DNA of 36,877 nucleotides. Source: an uncultured Bacilli bacterium (GTDB lineage: Bacteria; Bacillota_I; Bacilli_A; RF39; UBA660). The notes beneath the pieces are model-generated. The model made no database searches. It was not told the DNA's origin and worked only from the letters and a program-made list of their open reading frames with translations. The DNA lies in assembly GCA_947588865.1 (NCBI GenBank), contig CANPYQ010000001.1, positions 1 to 36,877 of the forward strand, in the 5' to 3' direction. Both the position numbers and the translations under genes were made by a program. Shown piece after piece: positions 6,837 through 31,517 of this stretch (within the stretch, counting starts at the first letter, position 1; the number at the start of each line of letters is the position of its first letter).

Positions 6837-7961
6837 ATGCACGATAATATATTTGAAGGAATGGACTTTGGTCCGTTAAAAGAATATTTAGAAAATGATG
6901 ATATTACCGATATTTCTTATAGCAATAACGGGCAGGTTTGGTTGAAAACTTTATCAAAAGGAATTTTTAGAATTGAAAATCCAGCTATAAATAATGCATT
7001 TATGGAGAAACTTGCATTTCAATGTTCAAATGTTATGGGAAAAAGTTTTAATGCTGCACATCCTTTTTTGGATAGTGAGAGTGCAGAATTACGTATGAAT
7101 TTTGTCCATGATTCTATTGCAAAAAATGGAATCGCTTGTGTTATACGTAAAACACCGGCAAAAATTCGTTTAGAGAGAAACAAAATATTAAAAGAAAAAT
7201 ATATTACAGAAGACATATTGGACTTTTTAATAACTTGTGTACATGGACATTGTAATATAATTGTATGTGGAGAAACTGGATCTGGTAAGACAGAGTTCGT
7301 AAAATTCTTAGCTTCAAATACTTATGAAAATGAAAAATTAATAACTATAGAAGATACTTTGGAACTGCACTTGGATAGGATATATCCAAATAGAGATATT
7401 GTTGCTATGAAAACTAACAATATTGCTAGTTATTCAGATGTTCTAGTTACTTGTATGAGACAGAATCCTAAATGGATATTATTATCAGAGGTTCGTAGTG
7501 CAGAGGCTGTTATGGCTGTTAGAAACTCTATTTCTTCAGGTCACTATATATTATCAACTATACATGCTGATAAAGCAGCTTCTATTCCAAATCGTATGTA
7601 TAGTTTGCTTGAAACTAATCAAGATATTGAACAATTTTTGAAATCTATTTATAGATATATTCAAATAGGAGTATATATAAGGGGATATCAGGATAAAATT
7701 TCAAAGAGCTTTGTAAGAGAAATTGCTGAAGTTACAGAATTTTATGTAACTGAGGATAATGAAGCAAAATATAATACTTTGTATAAAAAAACTCCCGATG
7801 GAACTGTTTATAGGAAAAACCCAAGTAAATATTTAATAGAATATTTAGAGGCACAGGGAACGGTTTTACCAACAGGATTTATAAAAGAGGAATATGATAA
7901 AGATAATAAAGTTGTTGAAAAAAAATCTTTAAATGATAATAACGAAATAATTTTTGAATAG
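6837..7961 (+). CDS. CpaF/TadA-type (VirB11-superfamily) secretion ATPase
   Basis: Walker A GETGSGKT, Asp box TIEDTLEL, Walker B region RQNPKWILLSEVR, His box LSTIHA. It is followed by two TadB/C-like genes. Confidence 0.9.
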   Translation: MHDNIFEGMDFGPLKEYLENDDITDISYSNNGQVWLKTLSKGIFRIENPAINNAFMEKLAFQCSNVMGKSFNAAHPFLDSESAELRMNFVHDSIAKNGIACVIRKTPAKIRLERNKILKEKYITEDILDFLITCVHGHCNIIVCGETGSGKTEFVKFLASNTYENEKLITIEDTLELHLDRIYPNRDIVAMKTNNIASYSDVLVTCMRQNPKWILLSEVRSAEAVMAVRNSISSGHYILSTIHADKAASIPNRMYSLLETNQDIEQFLKSIYRYIQIGVYIRGYQDKISKSFVREIAEVTEFYVTEDNEAKYNTLYKKTPDGTVYRKNPSKYLIEYLEAQGTVLPTGFIKEEYDKDNKVVEKKSLNDNNEIIFE

Positions 7962-9765: not shown

Positions 9766-10032
9766 ATGAAAGAAGCAGCAGGAGAAGCAAATATGACAGT
9801 AATAACAATAGTTTTAATAGCTATAGTACTTGCAATCGGAACAATTATAGTAACTAATATGATGAACAATACTGGAAAAAATTCTGCTTGTTCAAGTGCA
9901 GGTGGTGTATGGAATAGTGGTAAATGTTATGCAGCAAGTTCATGTAAATACGATAATGGAAAAACTACGTGCTCAGGAACTACTTTAAGTTGTAAGGAAT
10001 CTGGTAATGATTGGATATGTGAATCAAAATAA
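9766..10032 (+). CDS. Small pilin-like protein (candidate major Flp-like subunit) with a Cys-rich head
   Basis: RBS AGGTGAGG. MKEAAG leader, hydrophobic helix EANMTVITIVLIAIVLAIGTIIV, then about 50 aa containing 6 Cys. The gene has its own promoter and terminator. Confidence 0.75.
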   Translation: MKEAAGEANMTVITIVLIAIVLAIGTIIVTNMMNNTGKNSACSSAGGVWNSGKCYAASSCKYDNGKTTCSGTTLSCKESGNDWICESK

Positions 10033-10050
10033 ATTTTTATTAAAAATTCG

Positions 10051-10073
10051 AGAGGGTATTTACCTTCTTTTTT
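10051..10073 (+). terminator. Rho-independent terminator after the pilin gene
   Basis: agagggt (10051-10057) pairs with accttct (10062-10068), including one G-U pair, around a 4-nt loop. A T5 run follows (10069-10073). Confidence 0.5.
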
Positions 10074-10320
10074 GTGCCGTAAATACGAATTTTATTACTA
10101 TTAAAGTTTTTTAACTGAAAAAAATTTTTATGTGAACCCCAAGTAGAAGACATTATGGCACTCTTAGGCTATTACTTAAAAGCCCATACTGTAATATAAA
10201 TTGAATCGTCGTAGGTGGCGTGAGAGGTATAAATATAAAATAGAAAGCTTTATTTAATTTTCTCTACTCGTTTATTAACACTAATTTGAATAAAAAATTT
10301 AAACGATTGACATAATATCA

Positions 10321-10350
10321 TTGACAAAACTTCTTTACAACTGTTATAAT
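10321..10350 (+). promoter_or_regulatory. Near-consensus sigma-A promoter for the minor-pilin / tadZ / VirB2-like operon
   Basis: TTGACA (10321-10326), 18-nt spacer, TATAAT (10345-10350). A second TTGACA lies at 10307-10312. Confidence 0.6.
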
Positions 10351-10386
10351 TATATAGGTATATAATAAGAAAAGAGGTAATGAGAA

Positions 10387-10839
10387 GTGAAAGAAAGCGT
10401 AGGTTATACAGTTACATTAAATATTGCGATAATGTTTATTATAATAGTTTTTGCTTTCCTTGCTGCAGCTCTTATATATTATAAAAGTAATAAAGTTAAT
10501 AATGTAATAATTAATTCACTAGAAAAGTATGAAGGATTTAATGATTTAGCTATTAATGAAATAAATAATAGTATGACAACTTTAGGCTATAATAGACATT
10601 CAATTAATTGTGGTGATAATATCAGTGATGATGGAAATGCATGTACATTAGTAGGTGACGGAGATAGTAAAGATAATGGTTATTGTGTTTATGTTTGTGT
10701 AGAAGAAAATAAGGATTACTATTATTTTAGGGTAAAGTCTTATATGATGATCAATGTACCTATTATAAATGAAATTTTAAATATTCCAATATTTTCAAAT
10801 TCAAATAGATTATATGATTTTGGCGATAGTTTTAAATGA
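10387..10839 (+). CDS. Minor pilin-like (TadE/TadF-like) protein, paralog 1
   Basis: GTG start after AGAGGT. MKESVG leader plus hydrophobic helix. It shares CVY, YYYF/YK-VK-[ST]-Y and PII-[NG]-E-[IL] motifs with the next gene. 4 Cys. Confidence 0.75.
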   Translation: MKESVGYTVTLNIAIMFIIIVFAFLAAALIYYKSNKVNNVIINSLEKYEGFNDLAINEINNSMTTLGYNRHSINCGDNISDDGNACTLVGDGDSKDNGYCVYVCVEENKDYYYFRVKSYMMINVPIINEILNIPIFSNSNRLYDFGDSFK

Positions 10840-12317: not shown

Positions 12318-12767
12318 ATGAAAAATATATTTAAAATAGTTTTAAATTTTGTTTTAATATTTATAATAAACTTTATTTTTCTTGACTTTGTACATGCAAT
12401 TCAGTATAATAATTTTGATGAATCGGAATTTGTTAGTTGTGGTGAGAAACTAATTGACAATATTCCAGCAGTTCTTCCTAATGTAGTAAGTAAAATATAT
12501 TTGATTGTTCAAGTGGCAGTTCCTATAGTGCTAGTTATAATTGGTAGTATTGGTTTAATAAAATGTATAGTCGCATCTAAGGAAGATGAAATAAAAAAAG
12601 AACAACAAATTTTGATTAAAAGAGTTGTTTCAGCAGTAATTATATTTTTTATATTTACTGTAGTTAAATTTTTAATTAGTTTAGTTGCAGATAATAATAA
12701 TATTTTGGAATGTGCGGAATGTTTTATAGAAAACAATGATAAATGTGTTGTACAAAAAAATAACTAA
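12318..12767 (+). CDS. VirB2/TrbC-like two-TM pilin-like protein, paralog A
   Basis: RBS GGGGGA. Signal peptide, Cys near the mature N-terminus, TM1 VAVPIVLVIIGSIGLIK, loop SKEDEIKKEQQILIKR, TM2, and C-terminal ECAECF...KC. Confidence 0.7.
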   Translation: MKNIFKIVLNFVLIFIINFIFLDFVHAIQYNNFDESEFVSCGEKLIDNIPAVLPNVVSKIYLIVQVAVPIVLVIIGSIGLIKCIVASKEDEIKKEQQILIKRVVSAVIIFFIFTVVKFLISLVADNNNILECAECFIENNDKCVVQKNN

Positions 12768-12782
12768 GGAGTTACGGGAGTT

Positions 12783-13193
12783 ATGAAAAAGAAAGCGTTA
12801 AATATATTTATTCTTTTTACTGTGTTTTTTCCAGTTATAAGTATACATGCTATTGAAAAGGTATCTTGTGGGAATGTCACAGCTATTCCAGCTAAAATAC
12901 CAGAACTTACTAACTTTATTATGACTTTGGTTGAGGTTTTAGTACCTATTATTTTAGTTATAATGGGATCAATAGATTTAATAAAAGGAATATCATCACA
13001 GAAAGAAGATGAAATAAAAAAAGGGCAACAAATTTTGATAAAAAGAATTATTGTAGCAGTTATAATATTTATTGTAATAGTTGCAGTTAAATTTTTAGTT
13101 AGTATTGTTAATAATCCTGTTAATAGTAATAATATAGTTGATTGTATAGATTGTTTTTTGAATGGAAAGGAAAATTGTAAAAAGTGGAGGTAG
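12783..13193 (+). CDS. VirB2/TrbC-like two-TM pilin-like protein, paralog B
   Basis: Signal peptide, SCG, TM1 VLVPIILVIMGSIDLIKG, loop SQKEDEIKKGQQILIKR, TM2, and C-terminal DCIDCF...NC. Confidence 0.7.
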   Translation: MKKKALNIFILFTVFFPVISIHAIEKVSCGNVTAIPAKIPELTNFIMTLVEVLVPIILVIMGSIDLIKGISSQKEDEIKKGQQILIKRIIVAVIIFIVIVAVKFLVSIVNNPVNSNNIVDCIDCFLNGKENCKKWR

Positions 13194-13198
13194 TAATT

Positions 13199-13612
13199 AT
13201 GAAGAAAAAAATTTTATTTGTCGTTCTTTTGGGAATTTTAACTTTTAGCTTTTGTTCACCTGTTTTTGCTAAAAACATTTCATCTTGTGATTCTGTAATC
13301 TCAAGTAATGTTATAATAGATGAAAAAATACCAAATATAGTTAGTACTATTATAACAGTTATAAAGGTAGCTGTACCAGTATTATTGGTTATATTTGGAA
13401 TGATTGATTTAATGAAGGGTATAACATCACAAAAGGAAGATGAAATAAAAAAAGGACAATCATTATTTATAAAAAGACTTATATCAGGGGCTCTTGTGTT
13501 TTTTGTATTTACAATTGTACAATTAATTATAAGCTTTGTATCAGATGACGCTGATAACAATATAATGACTTGTGCTAGCTGTTTTATAAATAAAGAATGT
13601 CAATACAAATAA
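13199..13612 (+). CDS. VirB2/TrbC-like two-TM pilin-like protein, paralog C
   Basis: The ORF track starts at 13184. I prefer ATG 13199 after GGAGG. Signal peptide MKKKILFVVLLGILTFSFCSPVFA, SCD, TM1, loop SQKEDEIKKGQSLFIKR, TM2, and C-terminal TCASCF...EC. Confidence 0.7.
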   Translation: MKKKILFVVLLGILTFSFCSPVFAKNISSCDSVISSNVIIDEKIPNIVSTIITVIKVAVPVLLVIFGMIDLMKGITSQKEDEIKKGQSLFIKRLISGALVFFVFTIVQLIISFVSDDADNNIMTCASCFINKECQYK

Positions 13613-13628
13613 ATTATTAGGAGGATTT

Positions 13629-14741
13629 ATGGTTGATGCGTTAAAAAAACTAGATAAAAAATTTTTAATAATTGCTGGATGCATGGTTTTTTTACCAATT
13701 TTGTTTATTATTATTCTTGCTATTGTTCAAGGGTGTAGCAATAAAAAATTAACATATGAAAAATATGAAAGTAAAATGATTTCTGCGGCAGAAAAATATA
13801 TTAAAAAAGAAGATAAGAAACTTACAAACGAGGGTGAAAGTTATATAATTGACCTTAGCACATTAGTTGATAGTGATTATATTAAAGCAACAGAAGATGC
13901 ACTTGATGATACTTGTACTGGAAAAGTTATAGTTAGAAGAAATGGTTCATCAATCAAATCCAACGATGGAGGCTTTTTAAACTATATTCCATCGTTAAAA
14001 TGTGAGGGTTATAATTCAAATTCATTAATTAATTTAATAACTAAGAATATTGTTACTAGTGAATCTGGTTTATATAAAAATGGTGATGAATATATATTTA
14101 GGGGATCTAAAGTAGATAATTATATATCTTTCTTTGGTAAAGATTATAGGATACTTGGCGTAGATAGAAATGGGTTTGCTAAATTAATAGCGTCACAAAG
14201 TGACAGTGTCGATGTTTCTTGGGATATGAAATACAGTATAGAAACTAAAAGAGATACAGGCATAAATATATATAAAGATAGTAATATCCACGATAAATTA
14301 CTTGAATATTATGGTAATAAGAAGAAAATTTCACAAGATGCAAAAAAACATATTGTAGCGAATGATATATGTATAGGTAAGAGATATATTAATGATACTT
14401 CTCTTACTAGTGAATCCGATTGTTCACAAATTCTTAAAAATGAAATAATTACACTGATTAATATAACTGATTTTGCTAAAGCTAGTTTGGATAATAATTG
14501 TACAAGCATTGTTGCTAATTCTTGTAGGAATTATAACTATTTAAAAGCTTTGGGATTATGGACATGGACTGTTAATGGTGTAACAGATAATTCTTATGAA
14601 GCTTATTATTTGGGAAATGGAATAATAAGACATCAGGAAGCAAGTTCAAATGAATCATATAATGTTGTTATCCATATAGATTCTAATGAAATAGTTTTAT
14701 CTGGGGATGGATCTAAAAAAAATCCATATGTTATAAAATAA
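13629..14741 (+). CDS. Membrane-anchored (possibly lipoprotein) Cys-containing extracytoplasmic protein of unknown function
   Basis: RBS AGGAGG. N-terminal TM segment ending in IVQGC (imperfect lipobox). The following segment ISAAEKYI...LSTLVDSDYIKA...CTGKVIV loosely resembles the head start of type IV pilin-like proteins. 6 further Cys. Confidence 0.7.
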   Translation: MVDALKKLDKKFLIIAGCMVFLPILFIIILAIVQGCSNKKLTYEKYESKMISAAEKYIKKEDKKLTNEGESYIIDLSTLVDSDYIKATEDALDDTCTGKVIVRRNGSSIKSNDGGFLNYIPSLKCEGYNSNSLINLITKNIVTSESGLYKNGDEYIFRGSKVDNYISFFGKDYRILGVDRNGFAKLIASQSDSVDVSWDMKYSIETKRDTGINIYKDSNIHDKLLEYYGNKKKISQDAKKHIVANDICIGKRYINDTSLTSESDCSQILKNEIITLINITDFAKASLDNNCTSIVANSCRNYNYLKALGLWTWTVNGVTDNSYEAYYLGNGIIRHQEASSNESYNVVIHIDSNEIVLSGDGSKKNPYVIK

Positions 14742-14813: not shown

Positions 14814-15185
14814 ATGTTATTAAAAATCGATACTCAAGGGCTATATACTTGTGGTAATTTAAATTTTGAGTTTTCTGGAACTTTTCCATATATAGTTAAT
14901 ATGGCAATTACTATTATAAAAATAGTTGTTCCTATTTTATTAATTATATTTGGAATGTTGGATTTGGGTAAAGCTGTTGTTGCATCTAAAGAAGATGAAA
15001 TAAAAAAGGGTCAACAAACTTTTATAAAAAGAGTAATAGCAGCTGTAATTGTATTTTTTGTAATTCAAATAGTTCAAATTGTAATTTCATTTGTTTCTAA
15101 TAAAGATCCAAATGTTGTAAATTGCTTTAATTGTTTTGTAAATGCCGATACCGAAAAAGGTTGTATTGATTTAGCTGGTGAGTAG
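14814..15185 (+). CDS. VirB2/TrbC-like two-TM pilin-like protein, paralog D (no N-terminal signal peptide)
   Basis: RBS GGAGGAG. TCG, TM1 IVVPILLIIFGMLDLGK, loop SKEDEIKKGQQTFIKR, TM2, and C-terminal NCFNCF...GC. The gene is flanked by its own promoter and a strong terminator. Confidence 0.75.
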   Translation: MLLKIDTQGLYTCGNLNFEFSGTFPYIVNMAITIIKIVVPILLIIFGMLDLGKAVVASKEDEIKKGQQTFIKRVIAAVIVFFVIQIVQIVISFVSNKDPNVVNCFNCFVNADTEKGCIDLAGE

Positions 15186-15275: not shown

Positions 15276-17393
15276 ATGTATGTATTATCACTAAATATGT
15301 GGTTTCAAAAATTAATTAGACAATTTTTCTTTGCGATTGATAAAATTGTTTATAATTTTATACCTGCTATATATGACTTACTTATATCAATTGCGAGAAC
15401 TTCTCCTATTTCACAGGCAGATATATCTGATATGGCTAATAGAATATATAAACTATTAACAATTTTTATGATATTTAAGGTAACTTTTTCCCTTATTATG
15501 TATGTTGTTAATCCAGATGATTTTTCTGATAAATCAAAAGGTTTATCTAAACTCGGAACTAATATAATAATATCTTTAGCTCTATTAATTATAACACCTT
15601 ATATATTTAGTTATGCCTATCAACTACAAACTATTATTCTTGAAGATAACTCTTTAGCTACTTTAATATTTGGCGAAAACAATAATAAAACATTTTTTAA
15701 TACAGCTGGGGATGATATGGCTTTCATTGTCATGAGCCCATTTTTTACTCCAAATACAGCACAAAGGGAGTTATATGATTGTACTGAACTTGTAGTAAGG
15801 CAAAATGGAGTAGAATTATTTAATCCATCTTGTTCTGGATTTGATGAAAATGGTAATAAAAATAATGATGATACTTCTCTTGCTGCTCTAATTAATAAGA
15901 ACTATTTCCCTGAAGATGACTTAAAAACTTATGTAGCTGGTGTAAATTCGGGTAACTTGGGACTTATGTTTAGACAAGATATAGCCTTGGCAACAAAGGA
16001 TAATGATTGGTTTATAATAGATTATAAATATATATTTAGTACTGTGGTTGGGATCGTTGTTGTCTTTCTTCTTATAACTTTTTGTATGGATGTTGCTTTA
16101 CGAAGCATTAAACTTGCATTTTTACAGTTAGTTGCACCAATTCCAATTATATCTTATGTTGATCCTAAAAGTGGAAAAGATGGATTGTTTAAGAAATGGT
16201 ATCAGATGTGTTTTAAAACATTCGCAAGTTTATTTGTAAGGCTTATTGCACTTTATTTTGGGGTTTTCATAATAAGCAAGGTAGCAGATAGAAAATTAGT
16301 GGATATAATAGATGGATCCTATGTATCTAATGGTTTAATAGCGATATTTATAATAATAGGTGCTTTAATGTTTGCTAAACAATTACCAAAGATACTAGAA
16401 GGATTAGGTATTAAATTAGATGGAGATGGTAAGTTCTTCTTGAATCCACTTAAGAAATTTGAAGAGCAAGCAATAGGTGGTAAAAATGTAACTGGAATGG
16501 CCAGGGGAGCTCTAGTTGGAACTGCTGGTGCATTGACTGGGGCAGGACTTGCTGCTGGGCTTTCTGGCGCTTGGCGAGGATTAAAAAATGGAAAAGGTTG
16601 GACTGAGACAGGTAAAGCTACTGCAGAGATGAATAGAAAAATGCGTCAAGCAAAATTAAATGGTTCAACTTTTGCAGGCAGAATGGGTGCTAGGGTTACT
16701 AATGCAACAGGACTAAGGAGTCAGAGTGAGTCTATTGAAAAGCAAAAAAATGCACTTCAAAAAGAAATAGATGTAATTGAAGGTGAGAAAAAACGACTTG
16801 AAGCTCAAATAGCACCAGAAAAAACTAAAATTAGAAATAATGAAAGTACATCTTCTGCAATAAAAGCTATGCAAGATAGAGCTGTTTCAAAAGTAAAAGA
16901 AGGTAATGGTGCACAGGGTACAACATATCAAGAACTACTCAGAGCTGCTGAGGCCATTAAAAATAATAATTTTGGGAGTCCGAGACTTATAACTGATAGT
17001 TTAGGAAATAGTTATACTGTAACTAATGCTAATAAAGGTGCAATTGCCAAAGAAATAGAACAAAGAGCTGAAAGGTATGCAAATGTAGAGGGTAGAGATG
17101 CATGGCTTGATGATGCGTTATCATCAGGCTCTGATACTAAATTAACAAATTTATATAGTGAATATAAGACAAAGGCGAATATTAGTGGGCATGATATAAA
17201 AGCAACTGCTTCTGATTTAGATAATCAAAGTAAAACAATTTCAACTGATACAACTAATATTAAAAATAATATTGCAACAACAGAACAAAGCATTAGCAAT
17301 AAAGAAGATGAAATTAAAGAAAAAAATGTTAAAATGCAAGAATTTAACAAGAAAGAAAAAGTTGCTAAAGCAAATGAAGATGCTATTAAGTAA
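15276..17393 (+). CDS. VirB6/TrbL-like polytopic T4SS membrane protein with a Gly-rich and coiled-coil C-terminal extension
   Basis: RBS AAGGAGG. There are at least 6 hydrophobic helices in the first ~400 aa, then GALVGTAGALTGAGLAAGLSGAW and a long charged coiled-coil tail. The gene lies immediately upstream of the VirB3-like and VirB4 genes. Confidence 0.6.
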   Translation: MYVLSLNMWFQKLIRQFFFAIDKIVYNFIPAIYDLLISIARTSPISQADISDMANRIYKLLTIFMIFKVTFSLIMYVVNPDDFSDKSKGLSKLGTNIIISLALLIITPYIFSYAYQLQTIILEDNSLATLIFGENNNKTFFNTAGDDMAFIVMSPFFTPNTAQRELYDCTELVVRQNGVELFNPSCSGFDENGNKNNDDTSLAALINKNYFPEDDLKTYVAGVNSGNLGLMFRQDIALATKDNDWFIIDYKYIFSTVVGIVVVFLLITFCMDVALRSIKLAFLQLVAPIPIISYVDPKSGKDGLFKKWYQMCFKTFASLFVRLIALYFGVFIISKVADRKLVDIIDGSYVSNGLIAIFIIIGALMFAKQLPKILEGLGIKLDGDGKFFLNPLKKFEEQAIGGKNVTGMARGALVGTAGALTGAGLAAGLSGAWRGLKNGKGWTETGKATAEMNRKMRQAKLNGSTFAGRMGARVTNATGLRSQSESIEKQKNALQKEIDVIEGEKKRLEAQIAPEKTKIRNNESTSSAIKAMQDRAVSKVKEGNGAQGTTYQELLRAAEAIKNNNFGSPRLITDSLGNSYTVTNANKGAIAKEIEQRAERYANVEGRDAWLDDALSSGSDTKLTNLYSEYKTKANISGHDIKATASDLDNQSKTISTDTTNIKNNIATTEQSISNKEDEIKEKNVKMQEFNKKEKVAKANEDAIK

Positions 17394-17734: not shown

Positions 17735-18251
17735 ATATACTGATATACCTATAAAAAATATCACTAATGGTGTTATTATACTTGATAATAATCAAAAAGT
17801 TACGGGTGTTAAAATAATGCCAAGAAATATATTTATTCTTGATCCTGATATGCAAAATGCAATAATAACGAATTTAAAAAATGTCTATAATGCAATAGAC
17901 TATGAGTTTTGGATTGTTGTTGCTGATAGACCTGTTGATATTAATGTATACTTATCTCAATTACAATTGTTATATAATCAAATAAATGATACAAAAAAAA
18001 GAAAATTGATATTAGAAGATATTAATAAAGCTAATATGTTTATGAATAACAATGTTGTTGATACAGAATATTTCTTACTATTTAAGGATAAGGATAATGA
18101 TTTATTACAGAAAAGAATACGTAACTTAATAAATAATTTTGCAAGTGCAGGACTCACTGCTTTTCAGACTACAAATGATGATTTGAGAATGATTCTTGAT
18201 AATTTCTTAAATGGTGGACAAACTACTACATTTGGGACGGTGTTAGCGTAA
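17712..18251 (+). CDS. VirB4 N-terminal-domain-like protein (separate ORF)
   Basis: The ORF track starts at 17652, inside the previous gene. I prefer ATG 17712 (MAKQVKSKYTDIPIKNITNGVIILDNNQKVTGVKIMPRNIFIL...). This resembles the N-terminus of Firmicutes VirB4-type ATPases. It ends in a TAATG overlap with the ATPase gene. Confidence 0.6.
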   Translation: MAKQVKSKYTDIPIKNITNGVIILDNNQKVTGVKIMPRNIFILDPDMQNAIITNLKNVYNAIDYEFWIVVADRPVDINVYLSQLQLLYNQINDTKKRKLILEDINKANMFMNNNVVDTEYFLLFKDKDNDLLQKRIRNLINNFASAGLTAFQTTNDDLRMILDNFLNGGQTTTFGTVLA

Positions 18252-20035
18252 TGGATATAAAAAGTCAAATAGCTCCAAAAGGGTTGGAGTTTAAATCTAA
18301 TGAATTTATAATAAGTGATAAATATGCTTGCATATTAACTATAATATCATATCCTAAATTTATATATCCAGGCTATTTAAGTAGTTTAACAAGTATGTCT
18401 GGAATTAAAGTGGTAATTAAGCATATACCATTACCATTTAGTAGTATAAGCAAAATGTTAAACAAGGAATTAGCTGATTTAAGGCAAAGATATCAAGAGG
18501 AGAAAGATAAAACAATTCAGGAAAGAATAAGACAGGACTATGAGTCATTAGAAATGTTTGTTAGTGAGCTCGCTGCCAGTCAATCTAAAATATATGATTT
18601 TCAAATGCATGTTATGATAACAGCAGATACACAAGAAGATTTAGATTTGAAAAAGGTTCAAGTAAAAAATTATTTAGAAGCTATGGAAATGAGGGGAATA
18701 CCTCTTAGATTTGAACAAGATAAAGTATTAAAATCTATTTTACCTATATATGGTAAACAAGATATTGAGGATAGAATAGGTACTCCTATTCCAACTCCCA
18801 CTATAGCAGCAATGTATCCATTTATATTTGACAGTATAAAAGATCCAGGACTTTCAACATTACTTGGAATTGATTTTTCAGGTGGTGTAATTCTGTTTAA
18901 TCAGTTTTTGTATCAAATAAAAAAGGAACATAATAGAAATAATGCTAACATGATTATTTTAGGTACATCTGGTAGTGGTAAATCTACTGCTGCAAAATTG
19001 TTATTAAGAAGTCATATTAGAAATAATAATCAAATTGTTGTTATAGATCCTGAGGGAGAATTAGAGGAAATGACAAAATCTTTTGATGGAGATTTTATAA
19101 GTCTTGGAAAAGGTGGAGCATTCGGAATGATTAATCCACTTGAAGTAATAGTAGATGCAGATGATGAAGAGATGAACCAAGGACTTGGTTATACTGTTTT
19201 TACTCGTACTTTACAGACTATAAAGGCATTCTTAAAATATTATGATCCTAGTATAACTGAGGATGTAGTTAATATGTTCAGTGAGATTGTTCAAGAAACT
19301 TATAAAAGATTTGGGATAGATTTTAATTCAGATTTTACAAAATTTAAACCAGAGGATTTTCCAACATTTAAGGATGTATATGCTACGATAAAGGGTAGAA
19401 TATTATCTATGCCAGAAAAAAGTCAAGAAAAGGATGTTCTTGAAAAATTAGAAATAAAAATAAGACCAATAATTAGAGAGCTTAGATATTATTTTGATGG
19501 ACATACAACAATAAAACCTAAAAGTAATTTTATAGTATTTAACATAAAAGAACTTATGAATGCGGATAGTAATATAAGAAATGCTTTATTCTTTAATATA
19601 TTGAAATATGCTTGGGGTCTTACGCTTGATAGTACAGTAAATACTATTATGATGGTTGATGAAGCACATGTTCTCCTTAGCGGAGGTAATACTTTAGGAG
19701 CTGACTTTTTAGCTCAAATACAAAGAAGGGCTAGAAAATATAATACAGGTACAATAATAATAACGCAACAACCTACAGATTTTAGTGATCAAAGTGTTAT
19801 TACGCAAGGAAAAGCTATATTTGATAACGCATCATATTATCTTGTAATGGGATTAAGAAAACAAGCTGTAGATGATTTAGCTAAACTTATTGATTTAAAT
19901 GATAATGAGAAAGAAAGTATTAAGCAATATGGACAAGGAGAGGCACTATTTGTGTGTGGCTCTAGACGTATGAGAATAAATGTGATTGTATCAGATGAAG
20001 AGTTAGATGCATTTGGAAGTGGCGGCGGATTATAG
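18251..20035 (+). CDS. VirB4-family T4SS ATPase (central and ATPase domains)
   Basis: Walker A GTSGSGKST, Walker B IMMVDEAH, IIITQQPTDF. The N-terminal IAPKGLEFKSNEFIISDKYACILTIISYPKFIYPGYLS matches the conserved VirB4/TraE middle-region pattern. Confidence 0.9.
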   Translation: MDIKSQIAPKGLEFKSNEFIISDKYACILTIISYPKFIYPGYLSSLTSMSGIKVVIKHIPLPFSSISKMLNKELADLRQRYQEEKDKTIQERIRQDYESLEMFVSELAASQSKIYDFQMHVMITADTQEDLDLKKVQVKNYLEAMEMRGIPLRFEQDKVLKSILPIYGKQDIEDRIGTPIPTPTIAAMYPFIFDSIKDPGLSTLLGIDFSGGVILFNQFLYQIKKEHNRNNANMIILGTSGSGKSTAAKLLLRSHIRNNNQIVVIDPEGELEEMTKSFDGDFISLGKGGAFGMINPLEVIVDADDEEMNQGLGYTVFTRTLQTIKAFLKYYDPSITEDVVNMFSEIVQETYKRFGIDFNSDFTKFKPEDFPTFKDVYATIKGRILSMPEKSQEKDVLEKLEIKIRPIIRELRYYFDGHTTIKPKSNFIVFNIKELMNADSNIRNALFFNILKYAWGLTLDSTVNTIMMVDEAHVLLSGGNTLGADFLAQIQRRARKYNTGTIIITQQPTDFSDQSVITQGKAIFDNASYYLVMGLRKQAVDDLAKLIDLNDNEKESIKQYGQGEALFVCGSRRMRINVIVSDEELDAFGSGGGL

Positions 20036-24988: not shown

Positions 24989-24997
24989 GTGATTATC

Positions 24998-27091
24998 ATG
25001 AAATTAAGATTTAGAGCTGATTCTAGGGATATGTTAATATTTTGTATATTTGCATTTGTTTGGTTAATTGTTGTTGCATTTGCAGTGTCAAATGTTTCAC
25101 AATTTTTAAATGGGGAGTCTTTAACAATTAATTTATTTTTGGCATTTTTACCTAGGAATTTGGCTACAACTATAGTATTCTTTTTTGCAGGTTTAGTAGC
25201 TATTTTTGCTGGAGTTAAGTCCATCTTTTTGGAAAAAGAAGATGATGCAACTGGAATAGGTATATCTATAGGGCAAAAGAAGGAAAAAAATTATGCTAGA
25301 TGGGCAAAAGAAAAAGAAGTACAAAATGGATTAGATGTAAAAGCTGTAGATCCACTTGCTCCAAAATCAGATGCTGCAGGTATTCCACTAATTATGAATC
25401 CAAAAAAGGTATGGGTTGACAATGGTGGGTATCATAATCTAGTTATAGGATCTACAGGTGCAGGTAAAACTCAAACAACTGTTTTGCCAATGGTTAATTT
25501 ACTTGCCAAGCATGATGAGTCTATGATAATAACAGACCCTAAAGGTGAAATATATGAAAACACTTCTAATTATTTAAAAAGTTTAGGATATAATATAGTT
25601 TTATTAAATTTTCGTGATCCACAACAAGGTAATGCCTGGAATCCAATGTATTTACCTTATTCGTTATATAAAGATGGAAATATAGACAAATCTGTTGAGT
25701 TGCTTGAAGATCTTGCTGCAAATATCCTTCATGATCCTAGTGCTAAAGGACAAGATCCATTCTGGGAAAATACTTCCGCGGATTATTTTGCAGGACTTGC
25801 ATGTGCACTTTTTGAGGATGCTGATCCGTCAGAGATAAATTTAAATAGTATTAGTTTAATGACTACTGTTGGTGAAGAAAAATTAGCAAATACTACATAT
25901 GTAAAAGATTATTTCAGTTATAAAGATCCAGGAGGAACTGCATATACAAAAGCATCTTCTACTTTAATGGCTCCGAGTGAAACAAAAGGTAGTATTTTAT
26001 CTGTATTTAAACAAAAAATACAATTATTTGCATCACGTGCTAATCTTTCTGAAATGTTATCTAATAATGATTTTGATATGCGTGATATAGGGAGAAAAAA
26101 AACAGCTGTATTTATCGTTATACAAGATGAAAAAACTACATATCATTCTTTGGTAACTATATTTTTAAAACAGTGCTATGAAACATTGATTTCAGTAGCG
26201 CAAGAATCAGGTGGAAAACTACCTCATAGGACAAACTTTATATTGGATGAGTTTGCCAATATGCCTCCTTTGAAGGACGTTACAACAATGGTAACAGCTG
26301 CTCGTTCAAGAAATATAAGATTTACCTTTATAATACAAAACTTTGCTCAACTTTATGAAGTATATGGGAAAGAAAATGGTGAAACTATTAAGGGTAACTG
26401 TGGTAATATTGTTTATCTGATAAGTACAGAACTTTCAGCACTTGAAGAAATTAGTAAGATGTGTGGAGAAGTTAAATCAAAAGAAAAAGAGAAGACATCA
26501 TCAACACCACTTGTTACAGTAAGTGATTTACAAAGATTAAGTCAGTGGGAAACAATTATTTTAAGACTTAGAACAATGCCTTTTAAAACTAAATTAACTC
26601 CAAATTATCAAATGAATTGGGGCCACAGTTTTCCTAAGGCAACATATCCATTAAGAGAAAAATGTCCAGTAAAAACATTTGACATAAAAGCTTTTGTTAA
26701 TAAAAAAAGAGAAGAAAAGATTAATAATATGCTAGGTGGAGAACCTAAAAATGGTTTTGAAAATATGTCAATGCCTTTCGCACCAGCTCCTTCATTTAAT
26801 CCATTTCAAGATATGCAAAAATCTTCTAATGTAGGGGGATTTAATGTTGACGATTTAGTTAAAAGAATAGATGCTAAAATAGCCGAATTAGAGGAAGAAG
26901 AAAGACAAGAAAAGGCTAAATCAGAATCAAATCAAAATACTTCTGTTAAAGACGCTAAAATTGAACAGAATATAAGTAGTAGTAACGATACAAACAAAAT
27001 TGATGAAAATAAAAAATATGAACAAGAAAAAATTGATAAAAATGGAATTACAGATGATCAGTTCTTTGATGACTTTTTTGCAGATGAATAA
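24998..27091 (+). CDS. VirD4/TraG-family type IV coupling protein
   Basis: The ORF track starts at GTG 24989. I prefer ATG 24998, 5 nt after AGGTGA. Two N-terminal TM segments, Walker A GSTGAGKTQT, Walker B NFILDEFANM, RSRNIRFTFIIQNFAQL, and an acidic C-terminal tail. Confidence 0.9.
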   Translation: MKLRFRADSRDMLIFCIFAFVWLIVVAFAVSNVSQFLNGESLTINLFLAFLPRNLATTIVFFFAGLVAIFAGVKSIFLEKEDDATGIGISIGQKKEKNYARWAKEKEVQNGLDVKAVDPLAPKSDAAGIPLIMNPKKVWVDNGGYHNLVIGSTGAGKTQTTVLPMVNLLAKHDESMIITDPKGEIYENTSNYLKSLGYNIVLLNFRDPQQGNAWNPMYLPYSLYKDGNIDKSVELLEDLAANILHDPSAKGQDPFWENTSADYFAGLACALFEDADPSEINLNSISLMTTVGEEKLANTTYVKDYFSYKDPGGTAYTKASSTLMAPSETKGSILSVFKQKIQLFASRANLSEMLSNNDFDMRDIGRKKTAVFIVIQDEKTTYHSLVTIFLKQCYETLISVAQESGGKLPHRTNFILDEFANMPPLKDVTTMVTAARSRNIRFTFIIQNFAQLYEVYGKENGETIKGNCGNIVYLISTELSALEEISKMCGEVKSKEKEKTSSTPLVTVSDLQRLSQWETIILRLRTMPFKTKLTPNYQMNWGHSFPKATYPLREKCPVKTFDIKAFVNKKREEKINNMLGGEPKNGFENMSMPFAPAPSFNPFQDMQKSSNVGGFNVDDLVKRIDAKIAELEEEERQEKAKSESNQNTSVKDAKIEQNISSSNDTNKIDENKKYEQEKIDKNGITDDQFFDDFFADE

Positions 27092-27262: not shown

Positions 27263-27550
27263 ATGATAAACAGTATTTCTGTATCTGAACTGAAGAAATT
27301 AAATAATATAAATTTAATTGATATAAGGAGTATAGAAAAATATAATAGTAGACATATTTTAAATGCAATAAATATACCTATGGAACAATTACTTATAAAT
27401 TCAAATAAATATTTAAATAAGAATGAAAAATATTATATTTATTGTCAGAAAGGAATGCAAAGTAGGAAATTATGTCAAATATTACAAAATAATGGTTATA
27501 ATGTTGTTAATGTAACTGGTGGATATGAGGCATGGATTTTAAATGAATAA
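27263..27550 (+). CDS. Single-domain rhodanese-like sulfurtransferase
   Basis: 95 aa. Active-site loop YCQKGMQSRKL, C-terminal GGYEAW. RBS GGGTGG. Confidence 0.85.
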   Translation: MINSISVSELKKLNNINLIDIRSIEKYNSRHILNAINIPMEQLLINSNKYLNKNEKYYIYCQKGMQSRKLCQILQNNGYNVVNVTGGYEAWILNE

Positions 27551-27606
27551 GATATTAATTTATCTTATTTTTTTATTTTCATGATATAATATATATGGTG
27601 ATAGTA

Positions 27607-28671
27607 ATGGAATATATAATATTAAGTCTATTAATAATAATACTAATATTAATTATTATAATGTTTAGTAAAAAAAATAATAGTATGGAAGAAAAAATTA
27701 ATAAGTTACAAATAAGTATGATTAAAGAAATAGGTGAGTTTAAAAATGATTTTTCTAGGAGCCTTACAAGTGATTTTAATAATCAAACAGAAAGACTCGA
27801 TAATAGATTAAGACTTATTAATGATAAAGTAAATGAAAGATTAGATGAAAATTTTGAGAAAACTAATAAAACATTTACAAATGTTTTAGAGCGACTATCT
27901 AAAATAGATGAAGCTCAAAAGAAAATAGATACTATATCCGGAGATATAATATCACTTCAGGGAGTACTGACTGATAAAAAGACAAGGGGTATATATGGCG
28001 AGGTAAATCTTGAGCATATTTTATCAAATGTATTTGGAAAAAATAATACTAAAATATTTCAAATGCAATATAGTTTTAATAACGGAACTATTGCAGATGC
28101 TGTTTTATTTACACCTGAACCCTTAGGTTTAATTGCTATAGACTCAAAGTTTCCTTTAGAGAACTATCAAATAATGGTAGATAAAAATAATAGTGTAGCT
28201 ATTCGCAACCAAGCTGAAAAAATGTTTAAAACAGATATGAAAAAACATATTGATGCAATAAGTAGTAAATATATAATACCTGGAATTACCAGTGATCAGG
28301 CGATATTATTTTTGCCAGCTGAGGCAATATTTGCTGAAGTAAATGCTTACCATACAGATATATTAGAATATGCATACAAAAAAAGGGTATGGATAACGAG
28401 TCCTACTACTTTAATTAGTACTTTAACAACTATACAAATTATAATTAAAAATATTGAAAGGGATAAGTTTGCTAAAGTAATTCATAGTGAATTAAGATTA
28501 TTAGATGAAGAATTTAAAAGATATAAAGACAGATGGGATAAACTTTATAGAAGTATAGAAACTGTAAGCAAAGATGTAAAAGATATACATACAACAACTA
28601 CTAAAATTACGAATAGATTTAATAGTATAAATCAAGTGGAGATGAAAAATTTAGATGATGAGGAAAATTAA
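27607..28671 (+). CDS. rmuC: DNA recombination protein RmuC
   Basis: The ORF track starts at ATG 27595. ATG 27607 follows GGTGA at better spacing. N-terminal TM segment, coiled coil, KTRGIYGEVNLEHILSNVFG and the FLPAEAIF motifs typical of RmuC. Confidence 0.85.
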   Translation: MEYIILSLLIIILILIIIMFSKKNNSMEEKINKLQISMIKEIGEFKNDFSRSLTSDFNNQTERLDNRLRLINDKVNERLDENFEKTNKTFTNVLERLSKIDEAQKKIDTISGDIISLQGVLTDKKTRGIYGEVNLEHILSNVFGKNNTKIFQMQYSFNNGTIADAVLFTPEPLGLIAIDSKFPLENYQIMVDKNNSVAIRNQAEKMFKTDMKKHIDAISSKYIIPGITSDQAILFLPAEAIFAEVNAYHTDILEYAYKKRVWITSPTTLISTLTTIQIIIKNIERDKFAKVIHSELRLLDEEFKRYKDRWDKLYRSIETVSKDVKDIHTTTTKITNRFNSINQVEMKNLDDEEN

Positions 28672-29245
28672 CATATTTTTAATATTAGTATCAATTATAG
28701 GTAGTTTATATTTTGTTATTACAAAAGATACTAATATAATTTTTGTTCTTAAAGATATTTCTATAATATTTACAATAAATTTACTTTATATAATAAAAGG
28801 AATATTTAAAATAAAAATAAATGATGGGATAAATTTTATTTATATATTATTTATATTTATGTCACATTTTTTAGGTGTAACCTGTGAACTTTATGGGCAA
28901 ATTTTTTGGTATGATAAATTTATACATTTTTTATCTGGAATTATAACCAGTTTTATTGCAATTTATATACTTGAAAAAGTAAAAAATAGACATAATTTAT
29001 TATTCAATATACTATTTATAATTGCTTTTTCACTTATGGTAGCATCACTTTGGGAAATATTTGAATATTTATCAAGTTATTATTTTAATGTTGATCCACA
29101 AAGAGTTGCTTTAACTGGTGTAAGCGATACCATGAAAGATATTATTGTTGCATTTTTAGGCTCAATATTAATATCCTTAAGTTATTACTTTGAGAATACG
29201 GAAGGTTACCAATTATTAACAAAAAAATTTATAAATCAATTATAA
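28655..29245 (+). CDS. Integral membrane protein (YjdF/DUF2238-like pattern)
   Basis: 5-6 hydrophobic helices. DKFIHFLSGI, LWEIFEY and DTMKDIIVAFLG. It overlaps the rmuC end by 17 nt. Confidence 0.6.
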   Translation: MMRKINIFLILVSIIGSLYFVITKDTNIIFVLKDISIIFTINLLYIIKGIFKIKINDGINFIYILFIFMSHFLGVTCELYGQIFWYDKFIHFLSGIITSFIAIYILEKVKNRHNLLFNILFIIAFSLMVASLWEIFEYLSSYYFNVDPQRVALTGVSDTMKDIIVAFLGSILISLSYYFENTEGYQLLTKKFINQL

Positions 29246-29304: not shown

Positions 29305-30297
29305 ATGGAATTAAAAGAAAATTATTATGAACTTTTAGGATTAATGCCTAAATTTAATTTTGATGTTTCTGATTTAAATTATGTAAAAAGTTTAACTTCA
29401 GATCAGATATTCGATATAACAAATAAAGCATATTTACAAGCAAAAACAGCAGAAGAAAAGAGAAAAATACGTGAGATATATGATATTTTGTCAGATCCAA
29501 AATCTAAGAAATTATATGACTCTGAGTTAGAAAAACAATTAAGCAGAAATATATATTCTGACTCTTCATTATATAAAAAACAAAAAGCAAGAATGGAAGC
29601 ATCTAAATTTGGAAAAAGGATAGCCAGTTCAAGTGTATATGTACTTAATTCTGGATTAGGATTACTGGCTAAAGCTGGAAGGAAAATAAAATTGATTATG
29701 ACTCCTCCAAAATTAAGGGTGGAAGATGTAACTACTAGTGAAAGTGATTTAATAACATTTTATAATAAAAAACTTGAAGCACAGATAAATGAATTATTAA
29801 ATAATCCAAATAATAATTATAATTTAAAAATTGCTTATTTGAAATATAAAAATCAAGTAGAGTTGATAAAACAGTTAATAGCTAAAAAAGAAAATGAAAA
29901 AATTTCAAAAGTAGAATCAGTAATTCATTCATTAGAACTCAAAGCTTTATATACTAAGTTAAATAGAGCTCAATCTTTTTTAGATGTTACATCAAAAAAA
30001 TTAGTTCAATATAATAAATCTTCTAAGCTAACTAAAATATATAAAAAGATTACGGAAACAGAATTAAAAATAGACAAATTAAAGGATAAAAATTATTCAA
30101 AACAAGCAATAAATAGATTAGAGTTAAAAATGAGTAAATTACTTTCTAGTAGAGAAAAGCAAGTAAAAAGGTATAAATTATATAATAATTTTAAATATAA
30201 ATTACAAGATGGTGCGTTAAACATTTATGATATGTCTAGTACATTTATTAAAAATGTAATAAATCCATCAACAGAAGGTTTTATAAAAATGCGTTAA
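29305..30297 (+). CDS. J-domain-like protein lacking the HPD motif, with a long coiled-coil C-terminus
   Basis: NYYELLGL...IREIYDILSDPKSKKLYD frames a J-domain-like fold, but no HPD tripeptide lies between the two motifs. The rest is Lys-rich coiled coil. Confidence 0.6.
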   Translation: MELKENYYELLGLMPKFNFDVSDLNYVKSLTSDQIFDITNKAYLQAKTAEEKRKIREIYDILSDPKSKKLYDSELEKQLSRNIYSDSSLYKKQKARMEASKFGKRIASSSVYVLNSGLGLLAKAGRKIKLIMTPPKLRVEDVTTSESDLITFYNKKLEAQINELLNNPNNNYNLKIAYLKYKNQVELIKQLIAKKENEKISKVESVIHSLELKALYTKLNRAQSFLDVTSKKLVQYNKSSKLTKIYKKITETELKIDKLKDKNYSKQAINRLELKMSKLLSSREKQVKRYKLYNNFKYKLQDGALNIYDMSSTFIKNVINPSTEGFIKMR

Positions 30298-30336
30298 CAA
30301 AAATATTTATAAATATTTTTGTATAAGGAGGTATCC

Positions 30337-31419
30337 ATGAAAAGAATTAGTGTTATGATCATATTTACGATGTTATTATTTATAAATATAGGTAAAATTA
30401 GTGCTGCTACTTGCGAATATAATCTAACTAGAAATAATGATCTCTCAAGTTCCGGTAAAGGTATTTTACATATAACGACAGCACGAGATGATCAAGGTAA
30501 ACTTACTATATCATATGAACATGAGAAACAGGGAGATCTTTATAATGTTTCTGATTTTTATTTAAATTCTAAAATGCTAACTGATGATAATCAATGCTTT
30601 GGTTCTATTACTCTTTGTACATTGAGCAATGGTCAAATGGGAATATTTGCATCTACAATGGATCCTAATGTATTAGATGAAAATGGCTCTTTTGAATATG
30701 ATATTGGCGATAAAGGACTTGATTGGTTTTGGGAATTTATTTCGAATAAGAGTGAGGTTTGTTATACAGTCGATGTATCTAAAATGACAATTAAAAATGA
30801 AAATGGTGAAGATGAAGAAATTGATGTATCAGATGCATCCAATAATGATGTTAATTTTGTATATTCATGTTCTAAATTTGAAGAAATGTATTCTGATATA
30901 GCACACTCATATAATGACTATGGTAATTGTAGTGGTAACAAAGCATCGGTTTCTAGTTGTAGAAGTAATGCATTATCCGAGGTAAATAGAAAATCAGATA
31001 ATTTAAAAAATGTTTGTAGAAATATAACTCAAAATCAGGGTTATAATGCAACGGATTCTTGTATACAGTCGTGTTTACATGTTAATAATTCTATACAAAA
31101 ATTAAGGGATTTATATATAAAAACGCATCAATCTGTAATTTCAAATGATTGTTCATTTTCAGATAGATTGATTATTTGGATTAGAAATATATTCAATTGG
31201 GTAAAATATATAATACCAACAGTTGTAATAATTTTAGGTATTATTGATTTTATTAGAGCTATTGCATCTGAAAAAGATGATGAAATGAAAAAAGCTCAAT
31301 CAAGGTTTGTAAAAAGGTTGATATCAGCAGCACTTATCTTTATAGTACCTTTTGTATTAGTATTTATATTAGATAAAATGGGATTTACCCCAGATGCATG
31401 TGGGATTATGGATTTATAA
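30337..31419 (+). CDS. Cys-rich secreted ectodomain fused to a C-terminal VirB2/TrbC-like two-TM module (paralog E)
   Basis: The ORF track starts at 30319. I prefer ATG 30337 after GGAGG. Signal peptide MKRISVMIIFTMLLFINIGKISA. An ectodomain of about 280 aa with 11 Cys. The C-terminus IIPTVVIILGIIDFIRAIASEKDDEMKKAQSRFVKRLISAALIFIV matches the TM1-loop-TM2 core of the genes at 12318-15185. Confidence 0.75.
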   Translation: MKRISVMIIFTMLLFINIGKISAATCEYNLTRNNDLSSSGKGILHITTARDDQGKLTISYEHEKQGDLYNVSDFYLNSKMLTDDNQCFGSITLCTLSNGQMGIFASTMDPNVLDENGSFEYDIGDKGLDWFWEFISNKSEVCYTVDVSKMTIKNENGEDEEIDVSDASNNDVNFVYSCSKFEEMYSDIAHSYNDYGNCSGNKASVSSCRSNALSEVNRKSDNLKNVCRNITQNQGYNATDSCIQSCLHVNNSIQKLRDLYIKTHQSVISNDCSFSDRLIIWIRNIFNWVKYIIPTVVIILGIIDFIRAIASEKDDEMKKAQSRFVKRLISAALIFIVPFVLVFILDKMGFTPDACGIMDL

Positions 31420-31517
31420 TTCCTTTTCTTTACATATTTTTACGAATATTTAATACAAATATATTAAATTACTTGAAAGTGAATGATAAAATAAATTATA
31501 ATATAATTGGTGATAAT

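Follow-up and report, generated by a model that had tools for sequence, protein, structure and literature searches.

A candidate long-form type IV secretion pilin with a hypervariable head in uncultured gut Bacilli

Results

The target gene and its immediate surroundings

We analyzed a 36,877-nucleotide (nt) stretch of DNA, hereafter the window, from an uncultured Bacilli bacterium of the RF39 lineage (contig CANPYQ010000001.1 of assembly GCA_947588865.1, positions 1 to 36,877 of the forward strand). It carries a chromosomal type IV secretion system (T4SS) and, to the right of it, an open reading frame (ORF) of 360 amino acids (aa) at 30337-31419 on the plus strand, which we call the target. 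This protein ends in a membrane module homologous to small pilins encoded in the same window, and the module is preceded by an ectodomain of about 250 aa. The pilin, T4SS, rhodanese, RmuC, DUF2238 and J-like genes located below are on the plus strand as well.

A Shine-Dalgarno sequence, AAGGAGG, can be read directly at 30325-30331. Because it sits 5 nt ahead of the ATG at 30337, this start was favored over an upstream TTG at 30319. The ribosome-binding site is strong and the ORF is genuine, as an earlier account made from the window's letters (the preliminary description) had assumed. The position given there, about 3.2 kb past virD4 and between a J-like gene and rnr, also held: the target starts 3.25 kb past the end of virD4 (27091), and a Pfam scan found a weak J-like gene upstream and rnr downstream. 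The former encodes a coiled-coil protein (29305-30297; DnaJ, E = 0.019, sub-threshold) and ends 39 nt 5' of the target. A sequence scan found no terminator-like site between them, and the two genes are possibly co-transcribed. On the other side, the longest rnr ORF opens at 31398 and overlaps the target end. A promoter-like TTGAAA-18-TATAAT lies ahead of rnr at 31473-31502, and the true rnr start is probably the ATG at 31518, which gives a protein of 696 aa, because the orthologues are 696 aa long. With this start, the target and rnr would not overlap. No Rfam RNA family was found in the window.

A C-terminal module shared with small pilins

Upstream of virB6, the window encodes four small pilin paralogs, A (12318-12767), B (12783-13193), C (13184-13612) and D (14814-15185), which are the presumed fiber subunits; a 370-aa ORF (13629-14741) separates C from D. 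The preliminary description had likened the C terminus of the target to these proteins, and the similarity proved significant. BLASTP aligned the target to paralog C with E = 2e-17 (40% identity over 77 aa) and to paralog D with E = 5e-14, and an alignment of all five module proteins contains twelve invariant columns. The Pfam profile PF18895 (T4SS_pilin) matched target residues 281-344 with 27.3 bits against a cut-off of 26.6 bits, covering profile positions 8-71 of 71. Among the five module proteins the target is the only one to pass this cut-off: A, C and D scored 15.9-17.8 bits, below the threshold, and B gave no match. No Pfam family other than PF18895 was found in the target, and the matches in NCBIfam, TIGR03943 to the target and MamI to three of the small pilins, were below threshold and regarded as noise.

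The profile score, the combination of a signal peptide with two helices and a charged loop, and the T4SS neighborhood all place the target with PF18895 proteins. Its size does not fit a canonical VirB2-like pilin, which measures about 50-150 aa and is mostly hairpin. As the target has 360 aa, with about 250 aa ahead of the hairpin, it is not classed as an ordinary major pilin. It is not a class III prepilin either, since it has an ordinary n-h-c signal peptide ending in ISA|A and carries its hydrophobic module at the C terminus. Homology and domain layout thus uphold the earlier view of a pilin-type membrane module bearing a large exposed passenger domain. We describe the target as a putative VirB2-like module with a passenger ectodomain, and the functional claims made for it below come from computation.

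Domain layout and predicted structure

The target begins with a Sec-type signal peptide (aa 1-23; 30337-30405) made of MKR, a hydrophobic core and ISA|A. Cleavage would probably fall after Ala23, and residues near this site are conserved among homologues: A23 in 93 of 100, C26 in 90 and Y28 in 87. The mature protein starts with a beta-rich, hypervariable head (aa 24-177; 30406-30867) with cysteines at 26, 87, 94 and 142. A Cys-rich helical stalk (aa 178-271; 30868-31149) follows, in which C178, C227, C242 and C246 are invariant and C198 and C208 are also present. The C-terminal pilin module (aa 272-360; 31150-31416) consists of C272, a first transmembrane helix (TM1, about 289-311), the charged loop SEKDDEMKKAQSRFVKR, a second helix (TM2, about 328-346) and a tail with the invariant C355. 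Hydropathy analysis gave three hydrophobic stretches, at 1-26 (the signal peptide), 285-312 and 323-352, and six K/R and four D/E residues between the two TM helices. The protein has twelve cysteines in all. The preliminary description had reported a signal peptide and an ectodomain with 11 of them, which is the number ahead of TM1; the one it left uncounted is C355 in the tail.

This arrangement is consistent with a topology in which head, stalk and the C355 tail are all outside, with TM1 crossing inward to a cytoplasmic KDDEMKKAQ..F.KR loop and TM2 crossing back outward. Membrane-stored VirB2-type pilins have the same topology. The twelve cysteines could give six disulfides. A disulfide between C272 and C355, acting as a 'staple' across the hairpin, is plausible because both residues are invariant and flank the outer side of the hairpin, and because the small pilins also carry flanking cysteines (one ahead of TM1 and three past TM2). 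Such a staple would be reminiscent of the head-to-tail cyclization of P-type pilins.

A full-length AlphaFold2 monomer model, built from a 95-sequence alignment (pLDDT 79, pTM 0.62), places strands between residues 23 and 163 of the head, together with two helices. It predicts stalk helices at 179-196, 202-233, 241-247 and 249-265, and a helical hairpin at 274-310 and 314-347. A head-only model from 17 sequences reached pLDDT 77 and pTM 0.73.

A separate class of long module proteins

A word-indexed search returned about 100 homologues of 300-470 aa, none of them named among the matches listed. When 1.84 billion representatives were searched exhaustively with HMMER and family clusters were counted at 50% identity, there were 196 clusters at E <= 1e-30, rising to 481 at E <= 1e-10 and to 4597 at E <= 1e-3. 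Across the 95 aligned members C178, C227, C242, C246, C272, P294, D304, A308, K318, K319, R327, A331, F335, P338 and C355 are invariant; A23, C26, Y28 and C87, as well as C198 and C208, are nearly so. The family is defined by a signal peptide, a mature C-x-Y, a variable head, a Cys stalk and a module extending to C355, all of which the target possesses.

Six genomic contexts were retrieved by exact protein look-up, and a further 75 loci were taken from one genome per species. All come from metagenome-assembled genomes (MAGs) of uncultured gut bacteria in rabbit, Hadza and Nepali people, goat, sheep, deer and mouse. The majority carry the label Bacilli and a few 'Tenericutes', 'Mollicutes' or 'Erysipelotrichaceae'. 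In L016/L062, L047, L051, L054, L056 and L061, a Bacilli-type locus is filed under Bacteroidaceae or Muribaculaceae MAG names, for which mis-binning or mislabelling is the likely cause.

A hidden Markov model (HMM) of the module found 195 ORFs, 181 of them distinct, in the window and 88 fetched loci. The module is almost always C-terminal. The lengths of these ORFs are bimodal, about half being 100-160 aa and about half 250-690 aa, in a sample that is biased because the loci were fetched using the target family. Module trees were inferred with FastTree (181 rows) and with IQ-TREE under LG+C20 (83 rows), and only their main split was used because they span about 106 columns. This split appears in both trees (FastTree 99, IQ-TREE SH-aLRT 95). 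It sets the target family, together with long proteins encoded directly 5' of virB6 and others encoded in the virD4-rhodanese interval, apart from the small pilins A-D and a second long-form family. It is thus well supported by the trees that the target module belongs to a separate long-protein class, and the label of an 'orphan fifth' paralog of A-D, given to it earlier, has to be dropped.

Members of this class also occur within the T4SS operon of other lineages. An HMM of the stalk (residues 176-271) recovered every orthologue in the target slot, and 37 distinct proteins in the fetched loci. In a sister lineage it also matched the products of four genes that lie between pilin D and virB6 (L036, L037, L038 and L040; E = 7e-7 to 1e-4). 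In the window's own lineage (VirB4 identity of at least 90%) the gene directly 5' of virB6 encodes small pilin D. This place is taken in about 22 more distant loci (VirB4 identity 65-85%), 10-120 nt from virB6, by a protein of 259-687 aa which lacks the C..CF tail of small pilins, and the tree puts most of these proteins in the target's module class. The simplest reading of these sequences is that the target may be a relocated member of an old T4SS component normally encoded beside virB6. In Gram-negative operons virB5 lies beside virB6, and the long-pilin class takes the equivalent place in the gene order.

Pfam domains were absent from the ectodomains of the other long forms. Those in L036, L043, L045, L048, L054, L055, L066 and L076 share a mature C-x-Y/F and a later C-P-x-Y-[LIV], are otherwise without detectable ectodomain similarity and were not united by a crude HMM. 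The preliminary description had heard an echo between the mature start of the target (ATCEY) and that of a surface protein at 4813-5478 (GGCEY). BLASTP between the two gave E = 1.2, orthologues of the surface protein keep merely one Cys near the mature N terminus, and we treat the resemblance as a short motif carrying no evidence of homology. Homology was also sought with the crude N-terminal 'C-x-Y ... CP-x-Y' HMM of the long forms, which failed to reach the 221-aa surface protein and likewise missed the target, and the candidate was rejected.

The second long-form family (330-434 aa) is encoded between PTAC and Peptidase_U32 genes, some 9 kb past the target orthologue on the downstream side (L001:15836-16828, L004:17979-18998, L006:19039-20094 and L012:18886-20190), a site past the right end of the window. 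It combines a Cys-rich ectodomain unrelated to the target stalk with a small-pilin-type module that has the C..CF tail. One relative that carries the Tad and T4SS cluster, L043 (JBAMOY010000001.1), has a genome of 1,203,482 bp, circular according to its title, in which a 592-aa long pilin is encoded upstream of virB6 with two small pilin genes intervening. The size of this genome hints that the clade includes reduced genomes.

A conserved slot to the right of the T4SS operon

The T4SS genes of the window include a VirB6/TrbL-like channel protein (15276-17393; PF19597 TrbL_4, E = 1.3e-8), a VirB4-like ATPase (18251-20035; Pfam AAA_10 and P-loop_TraG) and, as the final gene of the operon, the VirD4 coupling protein (24989-27091; PF02534, E = 7.7e-57). 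A block of rhodanese, RmuC and DUF2238 genes, identified by Pfam matches, fills the space from virD4 to the target slot (27263-29245). The Tad ATPase TadA is encoded at 6837-7961. No relaxase domain was found among the Pfam-scanned ORFs of window positions 430-27091, though VirD4 is present.

Searching the relatives by tblastn with all window proteins revealed a shared order of VirB4, CHAP, lipoprotein, M23, two small ORFs, VirD4, rhodanese, RmuC, DUF2238, X, RNase R, PGA_cap, SmpB, SpoVG and YabP, X being the target slot. This gene order is retained in loci L001-L035, and the slot from VirD4 through rhodanese, RmuC, DUF2238 and X to rnr is kept in over 20 MAGs of uncultured gut Bacilli. The preliminary description had raised an insertion at 29305-31419. 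Comparison of the rmuC-rnr interval shows instead that the target slot is conserved and only the J-like gene varies: by tblastn against the fetched loci, it is confined to the nearest relative (L001/L002/L014, 44% identity), and in the remaining relatives the target orthologue directly follows DUF2238 with no J-like gene between. From its distribution the J-like gene is lineage-specific, and an insertion would concern it alone.

VirD4 is encoded upstream of the target orthologue in 25 of 30 loci with a member that has both stalk and module; the other five end before reaching it, being too short or having VirB4/VirB6. Among related loci with enough flank, none carried a family member without a T4SS. 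Some relatives hold two or three family copies. An extra copy lies between the rhodanese gene and RmuC in L008 (7167-8156), L019 (6164-7438) and L034; copies are in tandem in L018 (9830-11788), L030 and L033; and copies occur past rnr in L021 (13340-14710) and L032 (9512-10603). Together with the family members inside the T4SS operon of sister lineages, the conserved slot order supports the suggestion that the accessory region continues right of the operon, and supports a T4SS neighborhood that reaches right of virD4 and to which the target functionally belongs. The other option offered earlier, chromosomal members independent of the T4SS, gained no support from these loci.

An envelope protein independent of the T4SS, which merely shares a two-TM hairpin and has a housekeeping role near rmuC, rnr and smpB, would account for the housekeeping type of the flanking genes, for an rnr gene with its own promoter-like site and for the age of the rnr-smpB synteny. 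The module homology goes far beyond chance, however; stalk-bearing members lie inside the T4SS operon elsewhere; every sufficiently long locus with the gene holds a T4SS; and hypervariability of the head is unexpected for a housekeeping protein. We regard this explanation as barely tenable.

The cluster also looks unlike a recently mobile conjugative element, because it is syntenic with housekeeping genes across species. No family relative was found by tblastn against 72,556 plasmid records or 50,697 phage records, leaving a mobile-element origin in known collections unsupported.

A conservation gradient and replacement of the head

Mean identity between the target and its orthologues is 19% in the head, 27% in the stalk and 65% in the module, and the head alignments contain large indels. 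Neighbors of the target in the same loci are about 61-99% identical, with medians of 65% for DUF2238, 76% for rhodanese, 82% for RNase R, 84% for VirD4, 87% for RmuC and 95% for SpoVG. Among three close orthologues, the ratio of nonsynonymous to synonymous substitution rates (dN/dS) was highest in the head (0.36-0.78), intermediate in the stalk (0.20-0.25) and lowest in the module (0.00-0.05). VirB4 is 91-96% identical within the window's own lineage, and TadA is 87-96% identical among relatives. Since these ATPases exceed RNase R (about 82%) and SmpB (about 81%) in conservation, the comparison suggests that VirB4 and the Tad ATPase belong to a core, possibly essential apparatus central to the clade.

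A receptor or adhesin that stays in the membrane and never leaves it for a fiber would fit the synteny, the hypervariable head and the conserved module equally well. In such a protein the hairpin would serve as an anchor and for docking to VirB6 or the pilin pool, and stalk and head would project from the cell surface beside the T4SS and capture the partner cell, the role of PrgB-type adhesins in Gram-positive conjugation. A 250-aa passenger is bulky for a fiber subunit, and a separate module class lacking the C..CF tail could mean a non-polymerizing role. Against this, the loop and both helices are over-conserved for an anchor: ten of the 15 invariant columns fall in P294-C355, where dN/dS of the module is 0.00-0.05. 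Conservation on this scale exceeds what a simple anchor needs and points to a particular contact with the secretion machinery. The ancestral site directly 5' of virB6 is, moreover, the usual place for pilus components, and a stalk of about 90 residues would be short for crossing a Gram-positive wall. We consider a membrane-resident adhesin unlikely, though it is the alternative to be taken most seriously.

Loci L006 and L016 form the most informative pair. Their signal peptides and modules are identical at the protein level (module dS 0.05), while their heads are 55% identical with a dS of 0.46, a difference pointing to a head swap by recombination. Compared in 300-nt windows across 16.6 kb, they stay at 96-100% nt identity save at 9901-10794 (92%, 65% and 90%). 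This is the sole such island of divergence, and within the target orthologue it covers the head and extends over part of the stalk. The island looks like a cassette-type allelic replacement, and from its sequence pattern we read it as the signature of a putative exposed determinant, antigenic or for recognition.

A head that is replaced between strains in near-identical loci is also typical of recognition or exclusion loci, and several relatives have two or three copies. The target could, on this evidence, be a self/non-self or entry-exclusion determinant, in which the head marks the strain and the module contacts VirB6 of a sibling or of its own machine, thereby blocking contacts among kin. 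Known exclusion proteins act via VirB6/TraG-like partners. Most of them, however, are small lipoproteins or proteins of the inner membrane that lack a pilin module, and none was matched in Pfam or NCBIfam. As the window showed no sign of mobility or of a relaxase, and the plasmid and phage records gave no match, conjugative exclusion would have no obvious purpose. We think an exclusion role improbable.

Discussion

The reading that we favor, at somewhat better than an even chance, is that the target is a long-form T4SS pilin, a rare or tip subunit whose head recognizes a partner surface and which serves as a functional counterpart of VirB5. Following Sec export and cleavage after Ala23, the protein would be kept in the membrane by its C-terminal helical hairpin, with both ends outside and of the same module kind as in A-D, and the disulfide-rich stalk and hypervariable head would be displayed outside the membrane. 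The chromosomal, apparently relaxase-less T4SS (VirB6/VirB4/VirD4) would then recruit the hairpin to the VirB6 platform and build it into the small-pilin fiber as a rare or tip subunit, with the head recognizing the surface of a partner cell or host. A VirB6 pentamer is the proposed site of VirB2 assembly, and in all solved conjugative pili the N and C termini lie outside and the charged loop lines the lumen (10.64898/2025.12.18.695078). An N-terminal passenger would point outward for the same reason, as pilus termini lie outside. Extraction from the membrane, incorporation into a pilus with A-D and an adhesin function are what we would predict from the sequences.

Several observations weigh against a long-form pilin. 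The PF18895 score of the target clears its cut-off by just 0.7 bits. TrbC/VirB2 (PF04956) gave no match in the target at E <= 0.1, and a profile of the five modules found only chance matches among all Protein Data Bank (PDB) chains (E >= 0.12), with no VirB2/TraA pilin among them. As neither PF04956 nor solved pilins matched, the link to VirB2 comes from PF18895, topology and gene context. The separate module class is likewise drawn from trees of few columns. The preliminary description had proposed looking for structural homologs of the ectodomain, and Foldseek found none in the PDB: the best E value was 0.12 for the whole model and 0.37 for the head-only model, the latter with TM-scores of at most 0.22 normalized to query length, and neither model gave an adhesin-like or VirB5-like match. 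No VirB5/TraC entry occurred among the top 50 matches. The ectodomain is thus without a relative of solved structure, and neither head nor module matched one. In the window lineage the target lies 13 kb from virB6, behind three housekeeping-looking genes. A passenger of about 250 aa on every subunit would not pack, and sparse or terminal incorporation has to be assumed. In these uncultured Bacilli a pilus and its polymerization are predictions. Finally, no RNA run was found to hold the target sequence, which occurs only in low-depth rabbit-gut metagenome DNA contigs, probably the source samples.

The top Foldseek matches were syntaxin Habc bundles and LOV/PAS fragments, which were discarded as non-specific.

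VirB2-like pilins in monoderms have been recognized only recently, in Patescibacteria in 2023-2025 and on Gram-positive plasmids in a preprint of December 2025. According to a review of the same month, VirB2 and VirB5 are absent from Gram-positive T4SSs save those of Patescibacteria (PMC12857230), in which arrays of small PF18895 pilins are essential for epibiotic growth (PMC12102498, PMC10633639). In the preprint, whose survey was limited to plasmid proteins of 50-150 aa, most Gram-positive conjugative plasmids encode small VirB2-like proteins, and no tip or VirB5-like protein is reported (10.64898/2025.12.18.695078). In our literature search we met no account of a pilin module fused to a large ectodomain.

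The closest known parallel is found in the pilin arrays of the chromosomal, mostly relaxase-less T4SSs of Patescibacteria, such as the essential six-pilin array of Ca. Southlakia epibionticum. That system shares PF18895, a monoderm host, a chromosomal T4SS with VirB3/4/6 and peptidoglycan hydrolases (PMC10633639, PMC12102498, PMC12857230), and it likewise has several divergent pilin genes, Tad/T4P genes nearby and no relaxase detected in the cluster. The patescibacterial pilins are described as small subunits, for which we met no mention of passenger-domain forms, and the Southlakia system as lacking a recognizable coupling protein, whereas the target adds a head-plus-stalk ectodomain of about 250 aa and its cluster has VirD4. 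The hosts differ as well, the target belonging to a gut Bacillota lineage and the Southlakia system to Patescibacteria. With PrgF_B2 and the other VirB2-like pilins of Gram-positive plasmids, the target shares two TM helices, a short charged cytoplasmic loop and proximity to virB6; for these pilins, assembly on a VirB6 pentamer with the termini outside has been proposed (10.64898/2025.12.18.695078). In contrast to them, the target has 360 aa and an ectodomain, is chromosomal and had no match in the 72,556 plasmids.

The resemblance to VirB5/TraC is functional and positional only. Like the target, VirB5/TraC of Gram-negative T4SSs is secreted and partly helical; it is encoded beside virB6, as the long-pilin class is in distant relatives, and has a proposed role in contact at the tip, but no similarity of sequence or fold was detected and VirB5 has no transmembrane pilin hairpin. 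Minor and variable-head pilins of type IV pili (T4P) and type II secretion systems (T2SS) follow the same design of a conserved hydrophobic module joined to a variable, disulfide-bonded exposed domain, and there the low-abundance large subunits prime the fiber or occupy its tip. Their module is an N-terminal single helix, however, unrelated to the C-terminal two-helix hairpin of the target. The target has an ordinary Sec signal peptide and no prepilin-peptidase site, and the machine assembling it would be a T4SS rather than a T4P.

A wider version of the long-form pilin reading may be offered as speculation, which we consider doubtful. The long pilin would determine partner specificity for a core, non-conjugative T4SS and Tad apparatus by which a clade of uncultured gut Bacilli would attach to and exploit other cells, with a head cassette swapped by recombination setting the partner. 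It would be a Bacillota parallel to the epibiotic Saccharibacteria and the first T4SS tip made by a pilin-passenger fusion, filling the place of the 'missing VirB5' of Gram-positive systems.

The module of small VirB2-like pilins thus also occurs in a large unannotated family of long proteins, comprising at least 196 clusters at 50% identity. The heads of this family appear to be exposed and rapidly exchanging, and many genomes encode members beside virB6. If such proteins are incorporated into the fiber, they would be the contact and specificity element of Gram-positive T4SS pili, and would mark which cells these uncultured gut Bacilli touch. The centrality of the apparatus to this clade may now be approached by way of a defined surface protein.

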